IMG/VR virus record: IMGVR_UViG_3300047383_000085
Span: 1-34,201 of that record
DNA from: a virus
Length of the DNA stretch: 34,201 bases
Direction: 5' to 3' (one strand)
This document shows positions 10,102-34,201 of this stretch, piece after piece; the first letter of the stretch is position 1, and every line of letters begins with the position of its first letter. Position numbers and translations under genes: made by a program. The notes under the pieces are model-generated. The model was not told the DNA's origin. It did no database searches and saw nothing but the letters and a program-made list of their open reading frames with translations.

Positions 10102-12249
10102 ATGGCAAAAGATTACGAAGACAAAATGGAAGATGTGGTTAGTTCTGAAACTGACATGGAGCATCTTGCTGGTGTTATTAAATCAGAGATGGATGATGCA
10201 AAAGATTTCATTCATCAAGTGGGTGCAGAGCGAGCAGAATCTACAGAATATTATTTAGGTGAGCAACCACAAGCACAATCTAGCATGCAGTCTGAATTTG
10301 TTTCGACTGATGTTAGAGATAGCATTTTGTTTATGCTTCCATCTATCATGCGTACATTCTTTGGCACTAAAAAGATTGTTGAATTTGTACCGCATGGTCC
10401 AGAAGATATCCCTGTTGCCGAGCAACAAACTAACTATGTTAATTACATCATTCAAGAAAAAAACCAAGGCTTTCAAGTTTTATACGATGCGTTTAAAGAT
10501 GCGTTGGTTAGAAAGAGTGGTTTTGTCAAAGTCTTTTGGGATGATTCTATTTTAGCATCTACCAGCGAATACACAGACTTAGATCCTGTTTCATATCAAG
10601 CCTTAGTGCTTGATCCTAATGTAGAGGTTGTTAAAGAATCTGTCACCATGGAAATGATGACCCAGGTTGATCCTCTGTCTGGCGAAGAAGTAACACAAGA
10701 GATTCCTGCTAAGTACGATGTAACCATTCGTAGAGTTAAAGCCAAAGATCAAGTGTGTATTGAATCCATACCACCCGAAGAAGTTTTAATTTCACGCAAC
10801 GCGCGCGATCTTGAATCTGCATCTTATGTCGCGCACCGCATGATTAAATCTGTTTCTGATTTGGTTGCTATGGGTTATGACCAAGACGAAATAGAACAAT
10901 ACGCAACCCAAAGCTCAAGCGCGGTTGACCCAGAAGCCTTTGATGAGATAGAAGCAAGAAATCCATTTGACAACATGGTGTACCCAGACAGAAATGATAC
11001 TGGGGCGAAAGAAGTTTTATATGTTGAACATTATCTTTTTTATGACTTTGATGGCGATGGCATTGATGAAAGAATTAGAGTTTGTACTGCGGGTGAAGGT
11101 GTGAATGTGTTGAATGTAGAACAATGGGATGATTTACCTATTGCTATGTTCTGCCCAGATCCTGAACCACATACTGCAATCGGTTCGTGTCCAGCGGATT
11201 ACTTAAAGCCTATCCAAGCTGCAAAATCCCAAATTATGCGAGATACCCTTGATTCGCTTGGACACTCTATCTTTCCTCGTATGGCTGTTGTTGAAGGTCA
11301 AGTCAATATTGACGATGTACTCAATACTGATATCGGACAGCCCATTCGAGTTCGCGCCCCTGGGATGGTTCAACCCTTTACAGTACCCTTCGCTGGTAAA
11401 GAGGCTTTCCCTGTTCTTGGATACCTCGATGAAGCAAAAGAGAATAGGACTGGTGTGTCTAAAGCCTCTGCTGGCTTAAATGCAGATGCTTTGCAATCAA
11501 GCACCAGTGCAGCTGTGTCCGCTACCATGTCAGGAGCGCAAGGCCGAATAGAAATTATTTGCAGACATTTTGCAGAGGGTGGACTCAAACAACTCTTTAA
11601 AATTACTAACAACTTAATTATCAAACATCAAAATGCACAAGATGTATTTAGACTAGAGGGTCAATTTATTCCTGTTGATCCTAGATACTGGGAATCAGAT
11701 AAAGACATGGTTGTTAATGTGGCTATCTCTAAATCTTCTGATGAAGAGAAGTTTGCAATACTTGCACAGCTTGCAGGCAAACAAGAACAAATCATGCAAA
11801 CTCTTGGGCCAAGCAATCCATTGGTATCCATGCAACAATATTCTAATACTTTGACTCGCATGATCGAGATGGCTGGATTTAAAGATCCACAAGCGTTTAT
11901 TAATACGCAAGTACCACCTATGCCTCCGCAACCGCCTGAGTCACAACAACCTGATGCAGCTACCATGCTCGCACAAGCAGAAGCTATGAAAGCGCAAAAC
12001 CAAGCGCAGAAAGCTATCATTGATGCTGAGACTGATCGCATGAAGATCATTATGGATGATGATAGAAACAGAGATGAGACAGAAGCGCAGATTAGACTTA
12101 AAGCAGCAGAATTAACTGCTAAGTATGGCGCACAAGTCAACATTGCAGAGATAAATGCTATCATGGAGCGTGACCGAGAAAACATTAGGCAAACTGCAAA
12201 AGATCAAGCTCAAGGACTATTTACTGGCAATGGCAATCAAACTATATAA
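10102..12249 (+). CDS. Portal protein
   Basis: 715 aa, immediately after TerL. It has a long C-terminal Ala/Gln/Glu-rich helical tail (AEAMKAQNQAQKAIIDAETDRMK...) like P22-type portal barrels. Confidence 0.85.
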   Translation: MAKDYEDKMEDVVSSETDMEHLAGVIKSEMDDAKDFIHQVGAERAESTEYYLGEQPQAQSSMQSEFVSTDVRDSILFMLPSIMRTFFGTKKIVEFVPHGPEDIPVAEQQTNYVNYIIQEKNQGFQVLYDAFKDALVRKSGFVKVFWDDSILASTSEYTDLDPVSYQALVLDPNVEVVKESVTMEMMTQVDPLSGEEVTQEIPAKYDVTIRRVKAKDQVCIESIPPEEVLISRNARDLESASYVAHRMIKSVSDLVAMGYDQDEIEQYATQSSSAVDPEAFDEIEARNPFDNMVYPDRNDTGAKEVLYVEHYLFYDFDGDGIDERIRVCTAGEGVNVLNVEQWDDLPIAMFCPDPEPHTAIGSCPADYLKPIQAAKSQIMRDTLDSLGHSIFPRMAVVEGQVNIDDVLNTDIGQPIRVRAPGMVQPFTVPFAGKEAFPVLGYLDEAKENRTGVSKASAGLNADALQSSTSAAVSATMSGAQGRIEIICRHFAEGGLKQLFKITNNLIIKHQNAQDVFRLEGQFIPVDPRYWESDKDMVVNVAISKSSDEEKFAILAQLAGKQEQIMQTLGPSNPLVSMQQYSNTLTRMIEMAGFKDPQAFINTQVPPMPPQPPESQQPDAATMLAQAEAMKAQNQAQKAIIDAETDRMKIIMDDDRNRDETEAQIRLKAAELTAKYGAQVNIAEINAIMERDRENIRQTAKDQAQGLFTGNGNQTI

Positions 12250-12403
12250 CCTAGAAGTGTTAGTTGACGATTTAGTTTATGTCGGTAGTGATATTAGAGC
12301 CAAAAGCCAAGAAGATGCAGTTAGAATACTTGGTATTATCTCAGGTGGTGAAGTAACCGAGGATTCAGAAGTATTAAGCTGTGAGGAGAAAACTTTACAC
12401 TAA
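12230..12403 (+). CDS. Hypothetical acidic 57-aa protein
   Basis: ATG at 12230 lies inside the portal 3' end. TAATG junction with the next gene. The start is uncertain. Confidence 0.4.
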   Translation: MAIKLYNLEVLVDDLVYVGSDIRAKSQEDAVRILGIISGGEVTEDSEVLSCEEKTLH

Positions 12404-12675
12404 TGGCAATTACATACAGAGGCGAAAGGTTTAGCGGTTATAACAAACCCAAAAGAACACCTAATCACAAAACAAAATCACACGCAGTTTTAGCCAAGGT
12501 TGGTGATATCATAAAACTTATACGCTTTGGTCAACAGGGTGTTAGTGGTGCTGGTAAAAATCCCCAGTCTGCAAAAGGTAAAGCCAGAAGAAAATCATTT
12601 AAGGCTAGACACGCTAAAAATATTTCTAAAGGAAAATTGTCAGCAGCTTATTGGGCTGATAAAGTAAAGTGGTAA
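12403..12675 (+). CDS. Small basic protein (90 aa)
   Basis: Lys/Arg-rich, with a C-terminal RRKSFKARHAKNISKGKLSAAYWADKVKW motif. First of four consecutive basic ORFs. Confidence 0.65.
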   Translation: MAITYRGERFSGYNKPKRTPNHKTKSHAVLAKVGDIIKLIRFGQQGVSGAGKNPQSAKGKARRKSFKARHAKNISKGKLSAAYWADKVKW

Positions 12676-12678
12676 ATT

Positions 12679-12867
12679 ATGAATAGAAAGTTTAAAAAAG
12701 TTCCGAAGACTAAGGGCGGTGTTCCAAAGAAATATGTTAGTGGAGCAAAAAACCCAAAGGCAAGAGAAGCAGAAATTAAAAAAACTTCTGCTTTATATAA
12801 GGCTGGTAAACTTACACCAGCTATGATGAATAGAATCGCAAAACAAAGGGCTAAAAGTGTCAAATAA
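12679..12867 (+). CDS. Small hyper-basic protein (62 aa)
   Basis: 20 Lys/Arg in 62 residues by direct count. Confidence 0.6.
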   Translation: MNRKFKKVPKTKGGVPKKYVSGAKNPKAREAEIKKTSALYKAGKLTPAMMNRIAKQRAKSVK

Positions 12868-13096
12868 ACAAGATGTTATAAACAAATATCACAAATCTAG
12901 TGGTATATCAAAAAGCACTTTAGGAAAAGTTTATCAACGAGGAATGGGTGCTTATTACTCTTCTGGTTCTCGTCCTGGACAAACACCGCAATCATGGGCT
13001 GCTGGTCGTGTAAGATCATTTGCTACAGGTAAAGGCGGTGCAAGAGAGGCAGATAAAGATTTATTAAGACCTAAAAAATCAAAAAAAAGGAGCTAA
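12857..13096 (+). CDS. Small basic protein (79 aa)
   Basis: VYQRGMGAYYSSGSRPGQTPQSWAAGRVRSFATGKGG core with a KKSKKRS tail. The start overlaps the upstream gene by 11 nt. Confidence 0.6.
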   Translation: MSNKQDVINKYHKSSGISKSTLGKVYQRGMGAYYSSGSRPGQTPQSWAAGRVRSFATGKGGAREADKDLLRPKKSKKRS

Positions 13097-13098
13097 TT

Positions 13099-13206
13099 AT
13101 GCCAATGGTAGGAAAAAGGAAATACTCATACACAAAAGCTGGTGTGAAAAAAGCAAAAGCTGCTGCTAAGAAGAGCGGTAAAAAAATGACTTATAAGAAA
13201 AAATAA
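13099..13206 (+). CDS. 35-aa H1-tail/protamine-like basic peptide
   Basis: Hand translation: MPMVGKRKYSYTKAGVKKAKAAAKKSGKKMTYKKK, 14 Lys/Arg in 35 residues. AGGAG RBS lies 7 nt upstream. Confidence 0.5.
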   Translation: MPMVGKRKYSYTKAGVKKAKAAAKKSGKKMTYKKK

Positions 13207-13227
13207 GTGAAGCCATCCTCGGCAAAA
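13196..13227. repeat. 32-bp perfect direct repeat, copy 1
   Basis: AGAAAAAATAAGTGAAGCCATCCTCGGCAAAA is identical to 13534-13565, checked base by base at an offset of 338 bp. Mismatches flank both ends. Confidence 0.95.
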
Positions 13228-13236
13228 ACCGAATGA
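13207..13236 (+). pseudogene. Duplicated, truncated 5' end of the nuclease gene at 13545
   Basis: GTG AAG CCA TCC TCG GCA AAA matches the first 7 codons of 13545..13922, then stops after 9 codons. The TGA overlaps the ATG of the ParB-like ORF. Confidence 0.55.
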
Positions 13237-13544
13237 CTCTTTATCAGATGATTAATAAACTTAAACAAGATATGAAAGAAAATCATCATAAAGATTGGCT
13301 TGGATGGGTAGCTAAAAATAAAGTTTTTAAATTAAAAACCATTCCTATAGACTCTGTAGCACCAGCAAATGGTTTGACACTTGACCAAAATAAGATAAAT
13401 AATATGACTAAAAGTGATTTGAGTAATGCTCCTGTTATTGTGGTTCATAAAGATGGCAACATTATTGATGGCAATCATAGACATTCAGCATTAAAGAAAC
13501 AAGGCGCTCAAACAATACAAGTTTACACAGGCGAGAAAAAATAA
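13233..13544 (+). CDS. Stand-alone ParB/Srx-fold (ParB N-terminal nuclease-like) domain protein
   Basis: PVIVVHKDGNIIDGNHRHSALKKQGAQTIQVY matches the ParBc core (P-x-V...DG-x-HR). 103 aa. It is bracketed by the 32-bp repeats. Confidence 0.7.
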   Translation: MTLYQMINKLKQDMKENHHKDWLGWVAKNKVFKLKTIPIDSVAPANGLTLDQNKINNMTKSDLSNAPVIVVHKDGNIIDGNHRHSALKKQGAQTIQVYTGEKK

Positions 13545-13565
13545 GTGAAGCCATCCTCGGCAAAA
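13534..13565. repeat. 32-bp perfect direct repeat, copy 2
   Basis: Identical to 13196-13227. It contains the ParB-like gene stop and the GTG start of the next gene. Confidence 0.95.
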
Positions 13566-13922
13566 GCCAAGGGTCGAAAACTACAGCAATGGGTTGTTGA
13601 TAAACTTGTTGCAATACTTGGTTTTGATCCTGAAGATTTAGAATCAAGACCTATGGGATCTTCTGGCGAAGATGTCATTATGGGCGTTCAATCACGCAAA
13701 CAATTCCCCTACTCAATCGAGTGCAAAAACCAACAAGCAGTTAATGTTTGGAAGGCTTATGAGCAATCTTGTACTAACTGTAAAGATTACGAGCCTTTAG
13801 TTATAATAAAACGAAACAATACTAAACCATTGGCATTAGTCGATGCAGAGTATTTTATTAAACTGCATAAGGATCAAGATGGAACAAGAACCGAAAATAG
13901 AGATACACCAACATCAGAATAA
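13545..13922 (+). CDS. PD-(D/E)XK nuclease, Holliday-junction-resolvase (Hjc)-like
   Basis: KGRKLQQWVVDKL...GSSGEDVIMG...YSIECKN gives a D...E-x-K arrangement with an N-terminal helix, as in archaeal-type resolvases. GTG start. Confidence 0.55.
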   Translation: MKPSSAKAKGRKLQQWVVDKLVAILGFDPEDLESRPMGSSGEDVIMGVQSRKQFPYSIECKNQQAVNVWKAYEQSCTNCKDYEPLVIIKRNNTKPLALVDAEYFIKLHKDQDGTRTENRDTPTSE

Positions 13923-14133
13923 AACTTGGTATAACTTAGCCGAGGGTTTTGATAAATGGCGAGTCTTTCCCAGATTGCTCATTACTTTATATGGTTATGC
14001 TTTCTATAAAACTACTGAATGGTTTATGACCTTACCTGATCCAACCAATTCTCAATCAGCATTTGTTTCTGTTATTGTGGGCGCAGGTGCTGCATGGTTT
14101 GGTTTGTATGTTGGCGGTTCACCTAAAAGATAA
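13879..14133 (+). CDS. Two-TM small membrane protein, holin/antiholin-like
   Basis: Hydrophobic segments RLLITLYGYAFY and AFVSVIVGAGAAWFGLYVGG. ATG at 13879 follows AAGGA. An alternative ATG at 13843 is possible. Confidence 0.5.
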   Translation: MEQEPKIEIHQHQNKTWYNLAEGFDKWRVFPRLLITLYGYAFYKTTEWFMTLPDPTNSQSAFVSVIVGAGAAWFGLYVGGSPKR

Positions 14134-14435
14134 TGACCGAAGCAAAAGTCAATGATAGGACTACCTTTAATATTTCTATTAGTTATCTAATACAAATTAT
14201 TCTTGCTATTGCTGCTTTTGTTTATGGTTATGCTTCTATCAGTGAACACATAGAAAAAAATGACACAGAAATAAAAAATTTACGAGCTAACCAAAATACA
14301 TATATTTTTCCTGATATTAGATTGTTAGAACAAAAGGTAATAGTCTTGGAAAAAGAAGTGTTGGTTTTACAAAAAGAAATAGAATTTCATAAAAAAGAAA
14401 TTCAAGGCATCAAAAAAGGTATTGAAAATGATTAA
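14133..14435 (+). CDS. N-terminal TM anchor plus coiled-coil protein
   Basis: ISYLIQIILAIAAFVYGYASI is followed by heptad-like LEQKVIVLEKEVLVLQKEIEFHKKEIQGIKK. Confidence 0.55.
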   Translation: MTEAKVNDRTTFNISISYLIQIILAIAAFVYGYASISEHIEKNDTEIKNLRANQNTYIFPDIRLLEQKVIVLEKEVLVLQKEIEFHKKEIQGIKKGIEND

Positions 14436-14784
14436 ACAAATAGCAAAAGACTTTTTTATTAAATGGCAACAGGCTTGTTATGTTTGCTTTCCTATGATGG
14501 TACAGGGCAACTTATTTGCTCTTACATTTGACCATTGGATTAAAGCAAACAAAACAGGAATTATTGCAGGTTTTGGAGCAGTTTTACTTGGCTATACTGT
14601 TCTTAAAAAATACAAAGATAAGAAATGGTTTCATGGAGTAACAATTGCAACAGCTTGTTTTGTTGGTGATCTAATGATTCACCCATCTCACTTTGCTGGT
14701 GTATTTGGCGAAGCTGCATTAACAGCTATAGCATCTGGACTCCTTGCCACTTACTTTGTTTACAAGCCAATTAAATTAAAATGA
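14428..14784 (+). CDS. Multi-pass membrane protein
   Basis: At least three hydrophobic stretches (GIIAGFGAVLLGYTVL, GVTIATACFVGDLMI, ALTAIASGLLATYFVY). The ATG at 14428 is preferred over the TTG at 14422. Confidence 0.55.
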   Translation: MIKQIAKDFFIKWQQACYVCFPMMVQGNLFALTFDHWIKANKTGIIAGFGAVLLGYTVLKKYKDKKWFHGVTIATACFVGDLMIHPSHFAGVFGEAALTAIASGLLATYFVYKPIKLK

Positions 14785-15161
14785 TAGACAAACTTATAGA
14801 ACCCGTCACTCACATACTTGACAAGTTTGTTGCAGATAAAGATTTAAAAGCTAAGTTAGATCACGAAATAAAAACACAGTTTCATAAAATTGATCTTGCA
14901 CAAATAGAAGTTAATAAAGTAGAGGCATCTCATAGATCTATTTTTGTAGCTGGTTGGAGGCCTTGTTGCGGTTGGATATGTGCCATTGCACTTGGTTATC
15001 ACTTTGTTTTACAACCAATTATCTTATTTGTTTTATCGTTATATGACTTGCAATATCAACTACCTGAGTTTGACATGGGTGCATTACTTTATGTCTTAGG
15101 CGGTATGTTAGGTCTTGGTGGATTAAGAAGTTATGAAAAGTCAAAAGGTTTGACCAAATGA
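14781..15161 (+). CDS. Holin, GTA-type 3TM family-like
   Basis: LAQIEVNKVEASHRSIFVAGWRPCCGWICAIALGYHFVLQPI matches the conserved N-x-x-EA...F-x-x-GWRP-x-x-GW core of the '3TM holin for gene-transfer release' family. It lies directly upstream of the endolysin (ATGA overlap). Confidence 0.7.
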   Translation: MIDKLIEPVTHILDKFVADKDLKAKLDHEIKTQFHKIDLAQIEVNKVEASHRSIFVAGWRPCCGWICAIALGYHFVLQPIILFVLSLYDLQYQLPEFDMGALLYVLGGMLGLGGLRSYEKSKGLTK

Positions 15162-15532
15162 GTGATTGGAAGAATTTTAAGCTAGATGAGTTTAAATGTA
15201 AGCATTGTGGTGAAAATGAGATTGAATATGAGTTAATAGATAAGTTACAATCACTAAGAGAGGACTTAGGTTTTCCATTTATTATTTCTTCTGGTTACAG
15301 ATGCGAACATCACCCAGTAGAAAAAAAGAAAAGTAAGCCAGGCACTCACAATTTAGGTATTGCAGTCGATATTCGTTGCAGTCACAAAGAAGCATTACAA
15401 ATAGTATCCGCAGCAGAGGGTTACGGATTTACAGGAATTGGAGTTAATCAAAAAGGCAATGGAAGATTTATACACCTCGATATCGCAAAAGCTACGCATG
15501 ATCGTCCAAGGCCTCATATCTGGAGCTATTGA
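15158..15532 (+). CDS. Endolysin, peptidase M15 (zinc D-Ala-D-Ala carboxypeptidase-like) family
   Basis: FKLDEFKCKHCG...LREDLGFPFIISSGYRCEHHP...THNLGIAVDI...GRFIHLDI gives the H...D...H zinc-ligand layout of M15A peptidases. Confidence 0.8.
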   Translation: MSDWKNFKLDEFKCKHCGENEIEYELIDKLQSLREDLGFPFIISSGYRCEHHPVEKKKSKPGTHNLGIAVDIRCSHKEALQIVSAAEGYGFTGIGVNQKGNGRFIHLDIAKATHDRPRPHIWSY

Positions 15533-15780: not shown

Positions 15781-16644
15781 ATGGCAATAGGAATACCAGG
15801 GCAATTACCAGGACAATCAATGGCAGGGCCAGTCGCAACTGGTCAAGCATATGCACAACAAATAGCTGGTGGTATGCCAATGGAACAAGTCATTGCACCA
15901 GGCGTTAGTTATTCTCCTGAACAAGCGGGTGGTTATACACAAAAAGATTTAGATATGATAGCAGCAGGCCCAGCTCCTGTTATGCCTGTAGCGCCTACAA
16001 CTGGTGAGGTTGCAACAATAGAAGATCAGATGCCTTATGCACCACCTGGTGTATCAGAGCCAACTAGATTTATGCCTTTTCTGCAAAATTTAGATTTTAG
16101 TGGTTTGCCAAGGTATGAAGATATTAGAGATATAAGAGGTGTTGAAGATATTACACCAACATTATTTGATATTGATGTAGAAGAAATGCTTAAAGATATA
16201 GACACAAAAAAATTTGAAGACATAGATTTAACGGGTATTGATATACCAGCAATACCACAAGTACCAGTTATGCCTACAGTTCCAGTAATACAACAACCAA
16301 TAACGCCATCAATACCACAAGTTCCTGTAATGCCTGAAGTTCCTGTCATGCCTACAGCACCAGTTTTTAAAGAACCAATGCCATTTGTTTCAGAAATACA
16401 AAACATGCCCATGAACTTTACTGGATTACCTCAAATGCCAGTAATGCCAAATATTCCAGTCATGCCTCAATTACCAATTGTGCCACAACCGATAGTGCCA
16501 CAACCAATTCAGCCAATGAACTTTACTAGATTATCTAACTTACCAGTTTCTAATTTTGTCCAGCCTAGCGTTGAAGAGATTGTATCTCCAATTAGTAGAG
16601 GCAGAACATTACCACAAACACCAAGAGGATTATTTGGTTTATAA
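15781..16644 (+). CDS. Pro/Val/Met-rich repeat protein (287 aa)
   Basis: Repeated IPQVPVMP(T/E)VPV, LPQMPVMPNIPVMPQLPIVPQPIVPQPIQP. The middle is acidic. Confidence 0.7.
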   Translation: MAIGIPGQLPGQSMAGPVATGQAYAQQIAGGMPMEQVIAPGVSYSPEQAGGYTQKDLDMIAAGPAPVMPVAPTTGEVATIEDQMPYAPPGVSEPTRFMPFLQNLDFSGLPRYEDIRDIRGVEDITPTLFDIDVEEMLKDIDTKKFEDIDLTGIDIPAIPQVPVMPTVPVIQQPITPSIPQVPVMPEVPVMPTAPVFKEPMPFVSEIQNMPMNFTGLPQMPVMPNIPVMPQLPIVPQPIVPQPIQPMNFTRLSNLPVSNFVQPSVEEIVSPISRGRTLPQTPRGLFGL

Positions 16645-20346: not shown

Positions 20347-20904
20347 ATGGCCTCAGTAGGCTATGGCTCATATAACTACGGAATTGCCGCTTATGGCACT
20401 CCGCAGTATCAGGAAGCATCCGCAACAATAGCACAGACATCAGGTGCGTCTGCGATAGGCAGACAGCTTGATCGTGGTGTTGCAACCATTGCACAGACAT
20501 CTGGTATGTCTGCGGTTGGTACTCAAGTAGATCGTGGCTCTGCAACCCTAGCACAAACCAGTAGCATGACTAGTGTGGGCCATAGAGTCCATCTTGGTTC
20601 AAGCACCATAGCACAAACCTCTGGCATGAGTGCTGTAGGCAAACAAATCGATAGAGGTTCGGCAACCATTGCACAAACCTCATCTATGAATGGTGCAGGT
20701 CGATACACCATAGCAGCACACGCAACTGGTGCAGAGACATCAGACTTTACAGCTATTGGTAGACAGATCGATAGGGGCAAGGTTGATGGCAGCTTGTTCC
20801 CTCAAGAAACAAGTGGATTTTCAGCAAGTGGTGGTCTAAAATGGGAAGTGATACAGAATCCTGACACGACCTGGACTCAATTAACAAAAGAACAAGCGGC
20901 ATAA
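20347..20904 (+). CDS. Tandem-repeat structural protein (six 20-aa repeats)
   Basis: (S/V)AT(I/L)AQTS(G/S)MSAVG-x-Q-x-DRG repeated six times. It lies in the tail-fibre region. Confidence 0.7.
20419..20778 (+). repeat. Six in-frame 60-nt tandem repeats
   Basis: The 60-nt period is visible directly: GCAACCATTGCACA(G/A)AC(A/C)TC recurs at fixed offsets in successive 60-nt lines from 20401 to 20760. The copies have diverged at the nucleotide level. Confidence 0.85.
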
Positions 20905-33373: not shown

Positions 33374-34101
33374 TGTCATTAGCTGCAATTCAAAAGAAAG
33401 GTAAAGTAAAACCACCAAGGCTTATATGTTATGGCCCAGGCGGTATTGGTAAAACATCATTTGCCGCAAGCATGGATAAATGTGTAATCGTACAATCTGA
33501 AGATGGTATCGGAAAGATTGAGTGCGATCACTTTCCAGTAGCCAAAAGTTATGAAGAGTTTATGAGCAATCTAACTTCTTTATTGACAGAAGATCACGAA
33601 TTTCGTGTTGCCTGTATTGATTCGTTAGACTGGCTAGAAACTTTGTTATGGGATCATGTCTGCAAAGAAAATGGTTGGGCGCAAATAGATACACCTGCAT
33701 ATGGTAAAGGCTATGTTGCAGCTCTTGATAAGTGGAAAGAGTATGTTGAGGTTCTTAACAGACTCAGGGATGAAAAATCTATGACTGTGATACAGATTGC
33801 ACACAATCAGATTCGCAGATATGAAGACCCATCTAATGATCCACATGATCGACATGAAATTAAACTACATCGTAAAGCTGCTGACTTATTGGTAGAACAT
33901 AGCGATGCAGTCTTTTTTGCCAACTACAAAGTTGGAACTGTACAAGTCAAAGGCAAGATGGGTATGACTACCAAGACTGTTGCTGGAGACAGAACTATTT
34001 TTACTGAGCAAGCACCTGGTTATATGGCCAAGAATAGATATGGCTTGCCTAGTGAGATGCCTTTTGAGTGGGCAACCATAAGAGAGGAAATGTTGAAATG
34101 A
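33373..34101 (+). CDS. Sak4-like RecA-fold ATPase (AAA_24 family-like)
   Basis: Walker A RLICYGPGGIGKTS, Walker B-like RVACIDSLD and TVIQIAHNQ. 242 aa, in the typical position between the exonuclease and SSB. Confidence 0.75.
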   Translation: MSLAAIQKKGKVKPPRLICYGPGGIGKTSFAASMDKCVIVQSEDGIGKIECDHFPVAKSYEEFMSNLTSLLTEDHEFRVACIDSLDWLETLLWDHVCKENGWAQIDTPAYGKGYVAALDKWKEYVEVLNRLRDEKSMTVIQIAHNQIRRYEDPSNDPHDRHEIKLHRKAADLLVEHSDAVFFANYKVGTVQVKGKMGMTTKTVAGDRTIFTEQAPGYMAKNRYGLPSEMPFEWATIREEMLK

Positions 34102-34201
34102 GCCGATTAGGAGAAGTTGAAAGAGTAAAGAGAACCTTAAAACTGTTTGATATGATCTTGAATAAACACATAGATTCTATCAATCCAGAGGACAACTCTT
34201 T
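34075..34201. repeat. Terminal overlap copy 2, identical to 1..127
   Basis: Direct comparison of the two window ends. The unique genome length is therefore 34,074 bp. Confidence 0.95.

Follow-up and report, generated by a model that had tools for sequence, protein, structure and literature searches.

A ParB-fold gene bracketed by copies of a translational junction: a single-gene cassette in an uncultured marine phage

The IMG/VR virus record IMGVR_UViG_3300047383_000085, analysed here over its full length of 34,201 nucleotides (nt; hereinafter, the window), carries a small gene encoding a ParB/sulfiredoxin-fold protein that is bracketed by a perfect direct repeat. The 32-bp repeat unit, AGAAAAAATAAGTGAAGCCATCCTCGGCAAAA, is present in two + strand copies, at 13196-13227 and 13534-13565, with 0 mismatches and an offset of 338 bp, and comparison with related contigs suggests that the gene and its repeats form a cassette that probably spreads by homologous recombination through a duplicated gene start. 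On the left lies a Lys-rich peptide gene of 35 amino acids (aa) (13099..13206, +), an open reading frame (ORF) that matches phrog_33179, has its own AAGGAG Shine-Dalgarno (SD) sequence, ends in AAG AAA AAA TAA and is conserved at 66-100% at the aa level across many relatives. The left repeat copy (13196..13227, +) consists of the last 11 nt of this gene, including the TAA, and codons 1-7 of the nuclease gene located on the far side of the insert. It is followed by 306 bp of cassette-specific DNA (13228..13533, +). The cargo ORF (13233..13544, +) encodes the 103-aa solo ParB/sulfiredoxin-fold protein with an IIDGNHRH box, as indicated by AlphaFold2 (AF2), Foldseek and PHROG comparisons, and its last 11 nt (AG AAA AAA TAA) are inside the right repeat copy. 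That copy (13534..13565, +) combines the 3' end of the cassette with the genuine start of the nuclease gene (13545..13922, +), whose 125-aa product matches phrog_244 (5e-19) and, below threshold, PF24608 PDDEXK_15 (0.008); its comparison with PDB sequences gave no match.

Both copies contain the TAA followed by GTG AAG CCA TCC TCG GCA AAA, a run that continues as ACC GAA TGA on the left (13207-13236) and as GCC on the right. In the left copy, the GTG directly after the TAA opens a leader mini-ORF, VKPSSAKTE* (13207..13236, +), whose TGA overlaps the cargo ATG as ATGA. With one mismatch (A/G, 13228/13566), the repeat reaches 35 nt, the left copy extending to 13230, and the left junction of the window reads as the peptide gene, the 32-mer and ACCGAATGACT. 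The original prediction had described the repeat and its offset, the TAA plus seven nuclease codons in each copy, and the leader stop that overlaps the start of the 103-aa ORF, and all these features were confirmed. It had also allowed that the 32-mer might recur at many gene junctions as a regulatory element, which is ruled out: only two copies exist, with no third at <=3 mismatches on either strand of the whole window, and matches to the 32-mer were found in 0 of 100 dinucleotide shuffles. An RNA element was rejected as well, given that the best Rfam hit (E=0.31, an unrelated snoRNA model) is below threshold and neither copy has a significant fold (z-scores -1.7 and -1.3). A transposon, miniature inverted-repeat transposable element or integron was discarded on the grounds that there is no transposase, integrase or bracketing inverted repeat and that the insert encodes the ParB-fold ORF alone; the duplication measures 32-35 bp vs the 2-15 bp of the target-site duplications of transposons and insertion sequences.

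Relatives of the locus were identified by scanning IMG/VR with the nuclease protein, which yielded 296 confirmed relatives, from which the best 80 loci were retrieved. The 103-aa ORF is present in 0 of these 80, and the 306 bp of cassette-specific DNA are missing from all of them. Each of the 80 has exactly one nuclease start, and in every case this start immediately follows or overlaps the stop of a gene encoding a Lys-rich tail. One relative, L023, is colinear with the window minus 338 bp (94.7% identity over 868 bp) and encodes a basic peptide identical to that of the window at 100% of aa positions; when the intact window is the query, the two flanks overlap on this contig, and the overlap corresponds exactly to the 35-bp repeat. 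The variant that the original prediction had proposed to look for, with exactly 338 bp missing, is thus at hand, and the insertion polymorphism at the junction of the basic-peptide and nuclease genes is well established.

The short gene (103-117 aa as called, 77-96% aa identical) also turned up on >15 contigs of independent JGI, ENA and GenBank whole-genome shotgun (WGS) assemblies, in at least four flank contexts among the marine contigs other than the window. In the window itself, the basic-peptide gene with the 32-bp repeat is on the left, and the repeat with the nuclease gene is on the right. In seven contigs (L091-95, L101 and L103), the left flank is a different, 49-aa peptide gene followed by a degenerate leader, TTGAA[A/G]CCAT[C/G]CTCGGCACAAACCGA, and the right flank is GAGAAAAAATAA plus the nuclease gene. 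The 49-aa peptide gene also precedes the cassette in L098-100 and L102, there with a longer leader of nine nuclease-derived codons (in L098, ...GCCAAG then TGAAATGACAAACCGA); the nuclease gene follows on the right, in L098-100 after an extra 25 nt between GAGAA repeats. In L096 and L104, the cassette is located between homologues of p96 and the holin, flanked by repeats of the 10-nt sequence AGAAAATGAT and with no adjacent nuclease gene, so that the search for the cassette at another junction was likewise successful. Finally, L097 and L106 have an unrelated backbone, in which the leader is fused in frame with the cargo (VKPPSAKVRGNANQM...) and no nuclease gene lies downstream. Across the other contigs, then, the short gene has a remnant of the nuclease gene (its first 7-9 codons) on the left and ...GAGAAAAAATAA on the right. 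The native TTG-start junctions of three cassette-free contigs (L035, L037 and L053) match the left copies of the seven-contig group above and of L098-100.

The nuclease start occurs twice on the + strand in cassette-bearing contigs only, and therefore the duplication belongs to the cassette and probably was not made in the lineage of the window. The same observation rules out that duplication of the nuclease start is a general trait of inserts at this position, given that only ParB-bearing contigs have the second copy. The claim that an insertion duplicated the junction accordingly stands in its first part, the insertion polymorphism, whereas the duplication probably pre-dates the window, with its remnant present in other flank contexts. 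The cassette is probably a pre-formed travelling unit, the insertion of which probably did not arise in the window genome.

The age of the cassette differs sharply from that of its surroundings. The window cassette is 97.4-98.7% identical to the cassettes of L091-L095 and L099-L103. Compared with five of these (L101, L102, L103, L091 and L092), it shows 4-6 differences in 303 positions, 0 of them synonymous (out of ~59 synonymous sites), whereas the adjoining nuclease gene differs from the same five at 14-23 positions, 14-21 of which are synonymous and 0-2.5 nonsynonymous (Fisher p about 1e-6 to 1e-5 for the contrast at synonymous sites). In the alignment, the upstream gene switches identity exactly at the left repeat copy, and the near-identical tract extends between the leader and ~13606. 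These comparisons indicate a recent spread of the cassette, which is far younger than the DNA on either side.

A segment-by-segment comparison of the window with its nearest relatives points in the same direction. The left flank is closest to the cassette-free L023 (96-97%), the cassette to the cassette-bearing L101 (98.7%), the nuclease body to the cassette-free L009 (96.7%) and p96-p100 to the cassette-free L013 (96.8%); in the nuclease body, the cassette-bearing contigs are just 91.5-93.6% identical to the window. Because the flanks of the window are nearest to cassette-free genomes, the cassette appears to have moved alone, with crossovers in or beside the repeat on both sides. Over 12403-15532, compared with L001-L103, the window is a mosaic at the sub-kilobase scale, with L023, L101, L009 and L013 as successive nearest relatives. 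The left copy of the window reads GGCAAAAACC, in which the GGCAA of empty sites is joined to the AAACC typical of cassettes; the corresponding sequence is GGCACAAACC in other cassette alleles with a short leader (L091, L092, L101 and L103) and GGCAAAAGCC in empty sites. We read GGCAAAAACC as the footprint of a crossover inside the leader, which would explain the perfect 32-bp copies.

The explanation that we consider probable is that a cassette of ~338 bp was formed once and has since spread by homologous recombination through the duplicated nuclease start, which would also couple its expression to that of the neighbouring genes. The unit would comprise the nuclease-derived leader (the first 7-9 codons), the 103-aa ORF and, at its 3' end, GAGAAAAAATAA, a mimic of the Lys-rich tail and stop that are normally found ahead of the nuclease start. 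Crossovers would occur in the conserved 5' patch of the nuclease gene, now present on both sides of the cassette, and transfer could proceed either by unequal crossover between co-infecting genomes or by Campbell-style integration of a circular intermediate. In the latter case, the circle junction would read ...TACACAGGCG + 32-mer + ACCGAATGACTC..., a sequence nonexistent in the linear genome. In the window, a left crossover inside the leader would have turned the left copy into the native junction of the recipient genome, yielding the perfect 32 bp. Scar-less loss of the cassette through the same repeats is plausible.

The cargo itself could have originated as a domain-sized piece of a larger phage gene that was captured at a junction of Lys tail, stop and start by illegitimate, microhomology-guided recombination with staggered breakpoints. 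Homologues of the cargo form the N-terminal part of much longer proteins (long forms, discussed below), and imperfect microhomology is detectable at both breakpoints: on the left, the long-form sequence GCCAGGAAAATGAATGAC resembles the leader GCCAAGTGAAATGAC, and on the right, the long-form GGCGAGAGTAAAATGG can be compared with GGCGAGAAAAAATAAG in the window and GGCGAGAGAAAATGA in L096. The short forms cluster with a single long form (L105, 80%) within a more diverse set of long forms, which favours capture over fusion as the direction of the change.

Several points weigh against this explanation. The combination of the basic-peptide gene and the cassette is unique to the window among the contigs examined. 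The analysis covered assembled sequences, in which allele mixture in the source sample, excision and circle junctions would not be visible. The single C/A difference taken as a footprint could equally be a point mutation, and the right-hand crossover is placed only to 13534-~13606, owing to the conservation of this stretch across all relatives. The part of the ORFs that was scanned against PHROGs contained no recognisable recombinase. Most long forms have a Met three residues past the GE at which the homology ends, and a 1-nt indel at this point distinguishes L096 from the closest long form, which makes fusion of two genes a possible alternative to capture. Finally, the high ratios of nonsynonymous to synonymous substitution rates (dN/dS) of the cargo, given below, would also be compatible with relaxed constraint.

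The junction has accepted other genes as well. In L009 (2329-3000), a gene for a 205-aa MT-A70 methyltransferase (PF05063, 1.5e-25) is inserted at the position that corresponds to window 13206/13207, bounded by an imperfect A-rich duplication of ~21 nt, A[C/T]AAAAAAAAG[A/G]AAAAATAA. The junction is thus a hot spot for inserts, with the MT-A70 gene as a second, independent cargo. At the same junction, L034/L038, L062/L071/L080 and L064 contain extra Lys-rich peptide genes of ~24-45 aa (delimited by eye), which end in AAGAAAAAGAAAAA and overlap or abut the nuclease start; A-rich tails recur on both sides. Nearby, L091 contains at 125-1192 a gene for a 355-aa ART-PolyVal protein (PF18760, ADP-ribosyltransferase of polyvalent proteins), which is flanked by the counterparts of window genes 12155-12403 and 12403-12675. 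Beyond the portal gene lies an island of variable, effector-like genes.

The L009 insert, with a duplication of its own, lends some credence to an origin of the cassette in the lineage of the window, whereby a foreign 306-bp fragment was inserted by illegitimate recombination or template switching that returned 32-35 bp behind the point of departure. Such an event would account for the exact, undecayed 32-bp copies and for an empty site without exactly 338 bp, and A-rich and GGCAAA-type microhomologies are present at both breakpoints. We nevertheless regard de novo insertion as unlikely, because an independent event would not repeat identical breakpoints: the same left boundary (…AAACCGA ATGACT), the same 3' end and the nuclease-start remnant occur in other flank contexts, the remnant even in a backbone without a neighbouring nuclease gene. 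Moreover, the cassette is 98-99% identical to those of the other cassette-bearing contigs vs about 92-94% for the flanks.

The frame of the leader is open in every allele that carries it (equivalents are found in L091, L097, L098, L101, L102, L103 and L106), in the form of a 9-codon mini-ORF whose stop overlaps the cargo start as ATGA, a mini-ORF that stops 1 nt ahead of an upstream ATG, or an in-frame N-terminal extension. Hence the leader looks functional rather than debris, and the view of it as a dead start did not hold. Genes of the late operon nearly all lack an SD sequence and are spaced by -4 to +4 nt, and with the insertion in place the successive gaps are 0, -4 and 0 nt. Given the SD-less nature of the operon and its translational coupling, expression would come from the duplicated start: we infer that the leader serves as a relay for termination-reinitiation, in a chain that would lead from the TAA/GTG of the peptide gene through the 9-codon leader and the ATGA to the cargo, and from there through TAA/GTG to the nuclease. 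The right copy would leave the nuclease gene with its native 11-nt upstream context, such that the insert could be expressed without disturbing the nuclease start. Codons 1-10 of the nuclease gene (13545-13574) have a third-position diversity (pi3) of 0.038 vs 0.11-0.29 elsewhere in the gene, which suggests nucleotide-level constraint on the start region. In L001-L029, codon 2 is the sole variable codon of the compared start region (AAG/AAA/CGA/CAA).

These features could also mean that the repeat is kept only as a translation signal and that the cassette moves by ordinary homologous exchange in the longer flanks. The frame conservation of the leader and the SD-less, tightly coupled operon fit such a role, and so does the lack of significant RNA structure or an Rfam family. 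Exchange in the longer flanks is, however, difficult to reconcile with the switch of the upstream gene exactly at the left copy and with the affinity of both window flanks to cassette-free genomes, which place the crossovers in or beside the repeats, and we consider this explanation improbable. No terminator-like site was detected in 13196-13565, and the sole promoter-like site there, at 13374-13403 (+), lies within the cargo ORF; the number of sites does not exceed that in shuffled sequences. This site is a near-consensus sigma-70-like TTGACA-18-AATAAT (11/12), the -35 hexamer of which is made by the Thr49 codon ACA, unique to the window; other alleles have GCA, GTA or ATA.

The alpha/beta fold of the cargo is supported by the agreement of structure prediction and structure comparison. 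The AF2 model has a predicted local distance difference test score (pLDDT) of 77.5 and a predicted template modelling score (pTM) of 0.66. In a Foldseek search, the top 50 PDB matches listed are all ParB N-domains, Noc, KorB, Srx, SbnI/serine kinase or ParB-like proteins (prob 0.99-1.0, TMq 0.43-0.58; prob 1.0 and TMq 0.5-0.58 for the best ones). PHROG ParB-like families match the cargo at 1.7e-6 (phrog_8071) to 3e-3, whereas the Pfam ddrB-ParB family PF18763 (1e-3) scores 19.7 bits against a gathering cutoff of 27.6, that is, below threshold; PF02195 did not match the window ORF. At the sequence level, comparison with PDB proteins yielded only a marginal match to SbnI (E=0.88), and tblastn of the cargo against 50,697 GenBank phage records yielded none. 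Residues I78, D79, G80, H82 and R83 are invariant in an alignment of 7 sequences, and the DGNHRH box is kept in nearly all short and long forms. In the model, helix 81-89 is followed directly by strand 94-102, the last strand, which contains the invariant Y98. The predicted ParB/sulfiredoxin fold of the cargo is thereby confirmed. The ORF consists of this fold alone, without the helix-turn-helix DNA-binding domain and the C-terminal dimerisation domain of the canonical ParB of ParABS systems, and no ParA-like product was found among the part of the ORFs that was scanned.

The cargo is, at the same time, a building block of larger proteins. Homologues at 65-80% aa identity constitute the N-terminal ~100 aa of 371-375-aa proteins encoded on unrelated backbones (IMG/VR and metagenome contigs), and the homology with these long forms always stops at ...Y.GE. 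A search of 1.84 billion representative proteins returned 107 clusters at E <= 1e-3, with proteins of 70-2062 aa, in which the whole cargo matches as a unit that is N-terminal, internal, C-terminal or repeated; solo forms are a minority of the clusters. In L112 (227-1918), the domain is internal in a 563-aa protein, next to a second, canonical ParB-like domain. Very large proteins contain multiple matched stretches: 14 in P0011 (2062 aa) and 3 in P0007 (690 aa). PHROG and Pfam scans produced no informative annotation for the L106 backbone or for the neighbouring genes of the long forms. The characterization of the cargo as a stand-alone gene thus has to give way to that of one domain module of larger proteins. 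Residues ~47-60 of the cargo in L097/L106 form a middle segment, GWEATPGKIEDM, that resembles the long-form fragment P0005, both ends being of the short-form type, which points to recombination within the domain family.

The evolution of the cargo is rapid. Its dN/dS is high (0.4-0.85), with only nonsynonymous changes among close alleles, and 10 of the 13 codons that vary among the closest alleles are nonsynonymous; the long-form domain has a similar dN/dS (0.26-0.9). Across six alleles that are otherwise 97-99% identical in DNA, codon 49 (13377-13379) encodes T, A, V or I. Diversifying selection may act on the cargo. The possibility that the cargo is a specifically decaying fragment was examined and is unsupported, considering that the ORF is intact in all alleles and that its dN/dS is like that of the long-form domain; the pattern appears to be that of a fast-evolving family. 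The assertion that such a protein has no known role in phages of this kind was contradicted by the literature, where solo ParB-CTPase-fold phage proteins of ~100 aa and late-gene DdrB-like ParB proteins have already been described, with predicted roles (PMC12704722, PMC5512222). By analogy, the cargo would be a nucleoside triphosphate (NTP)-binding or nicking effector that acts in early infection or in virus-host conflict (PMC5512222). As in the described DdrB-like and solo ParB proteins (Iyer et al. 2017, PMC5512222; PMC12704722), a ParB/Srx fold with a conserved Arg-containing box occurs solo or in multidomain phage proteins, among late genes beside virion genes and with no ParA partner. Unlike in DdrB-ParB, PF18763 is below threshold, and the extra Tyr-bearing helix described for that group is not clearly evident in the model. 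The cargo adds a new member to the solo/DdrB-like group of ParB-fold phage proteins.

Could the cargo drive its own transfer? It might nick or cut the conserved nuclease-start junction of cassette-free co-infecting genomes, with repair copying the cassette together with the duplicated junction. The T4 seg and mob genes are free-standing homing endonuclease genes that spread by intronless homing, and the cassette resembles them as an intergenic accessory gene with a nuclease-type fold that is rare in relatives (0 of the 296 IMG/VR nuclease-gene relatives), far younger than its flanks and transferred in a short tract. Unlike homing endonucleases, the cargo has a ParB/Srx fold, not a LAGLIDADG, GIY-YIG, HNH or His-Cys one, and falls in no established family of such enzymes, and the target-like junction is intact as the right copy, so that the carrier would not be immune. 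We know of no site-specific activity for solo ParB folds. Nicking or DNase activity is possible for ParB/Srx domains, but the nuclease activity reported for ParB domains is largely sequence non-specific (PMC5512222). The product is, furthermore, a bare 103-aa fold without a DNA-recognition domain, and the cassette also occupies another junction (L096) and a backbone that lacks the nuclease gene (L097/L106). A homing-like process is therefore very unlikely. If true, it would define a new minimal class of free-standing homing element, in which the purely nonsynonymous changes, such as the four codon-49 alleles, would track the target or a partner.

The window begins and ends with an exact duplication of 127 bp (1-127 = 34075-34201), from which we infer that a circular contig was assembled at k=127; the window has the appearance of a complete, circularly assembled phage genome of ~34,074 bp, and this k suggests that the assembly was able to resolve the 32-bp repeat with both flanks. 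Pfam and PHROG scans identified genes for SSB, a primase-helicase, the small and large terminase subunits, a holin, an endolysin, a scaffold and tail proteins. The portal is of the SU10 type (PF23899, 2e-189; 10102-12249), and the repeat falls within the late operon, after the portal gene and ahead of the holin/endolysin genes (14781, 15158). The closest cultured relative by portal is 44% identical, and a distant-mode DNA search returned only short matches at 65-78% to pelagiphages, roseophages and cyanophages; the phage is an uncultured marine phage. An assembly chimera, which would have joined empty and cassette-bearing populations through a shared k-mer of 19-32 nt and rendered the left context of the window and the perfect identity of the copies artefactual, agrees with the presence of the basic-peptide plus cassette arrangement in the window only and with the population-level mosaicism of the region, but it has a slight chance at most, being unlikely if k=127, a value that far exceeds the repeat length, and it could affect only the window-specific left context, given that the cassette and leader remnant precede the nuclease gene in at least 10 independent contigs (JGI, ENA and GenBank WGS). 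Elsewhere in the genome, imperfect in-gene repeats are present at 16246-16481 (44-nt Pro/Val-rich units, ORF 15781-16644) and at 20425-20688 (84-nt units starting 60 and 120 nt apart, ORF 20347-20904).

The recombination route proposed for the cassette has parallels in known systems. In Campbell-type or 'ends-in' integration, the insert comes to be flanked by a duplication of the homology segment, and the reverse reaction removes it precisely. The cassette is likewise flanked by direct repeats as long as the shared homology; unlike in Campbell-type integration, there is no integrase or attachment site, the homology is ~20-35 bp of coding sequence and the circular form is hypothetical. Morons, a concept of Hendrix and Juhala, are foreign accessory genes located between genes that are adjacent in relatives, and the classic ones bring a promoter and a terminator. 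The cassette similarly is a single extra gene, of foreign origin and dispensable, between two genes that abut in relatives; unlike classic morons, it is without a promoter and terminator of its own and would rely on the host operon via the duplicated start. The closest resemblance in architecture is to the PeSL (promoter-early stem-loop) cassettes of T4-type phages, small accessory ORFs in hyperplastic regions (Arbiol et al. 2010, PMC2839356; PMC4122927). There, direct repeats of an expression signal permit recombination to insert, delete or swap an ORF with no dedicated integrase (PMC2839356; PMC4122927), and mini-circles have been demonstrated experimentally and proposed as vectors (PMC2839356). 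As in PeSL cassettes, a conserved expression signal stands in direct copies on either side of an ORF, and these copies would serve as crossover sites. Whereas the PeSL unit is a sigma-70 early promoter with a stem-loop terminator, the repeat described here is a stop/start junction plus 7-9 codons and would operate at the translational level. There is one cassette with two copies instead of a genome-wide repeat family, the repeat contains no promoter or terminator, and the host is a 34-kb uncultured marine phage rather than a T4-like myovirus. The cassette is a well-supported, real translational-junction analogue of morons and PeSL cassettes.

These findings offer a single-gene view of how an accessory gene becomes portable among uncultured marine phages. 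The copied start of the neighbour would provide both a homology arm into any genome with that neighbour and a ready-made leader for translational coupling, and because this copy does both jobs, no promoter, ribosome-binding site or integrase would be needed. The presence of 0 synonymous differences in the cassette vs about 20 next door is a clean sign that a single gene has swept through a diverged population of phages. In addition, the locus illustrates that one domain of larger, apparently polyvalent-type phage proteins also lives as an independent gene. If junction-duplication cassettes are common, the PeSL idea would extend from transcriptional to translational signals, and the duplicated junction would become a sequence signature by which viral metagenomes could be searched for accessory genes, possibly with anti-defence functions, that were mobilised recently.

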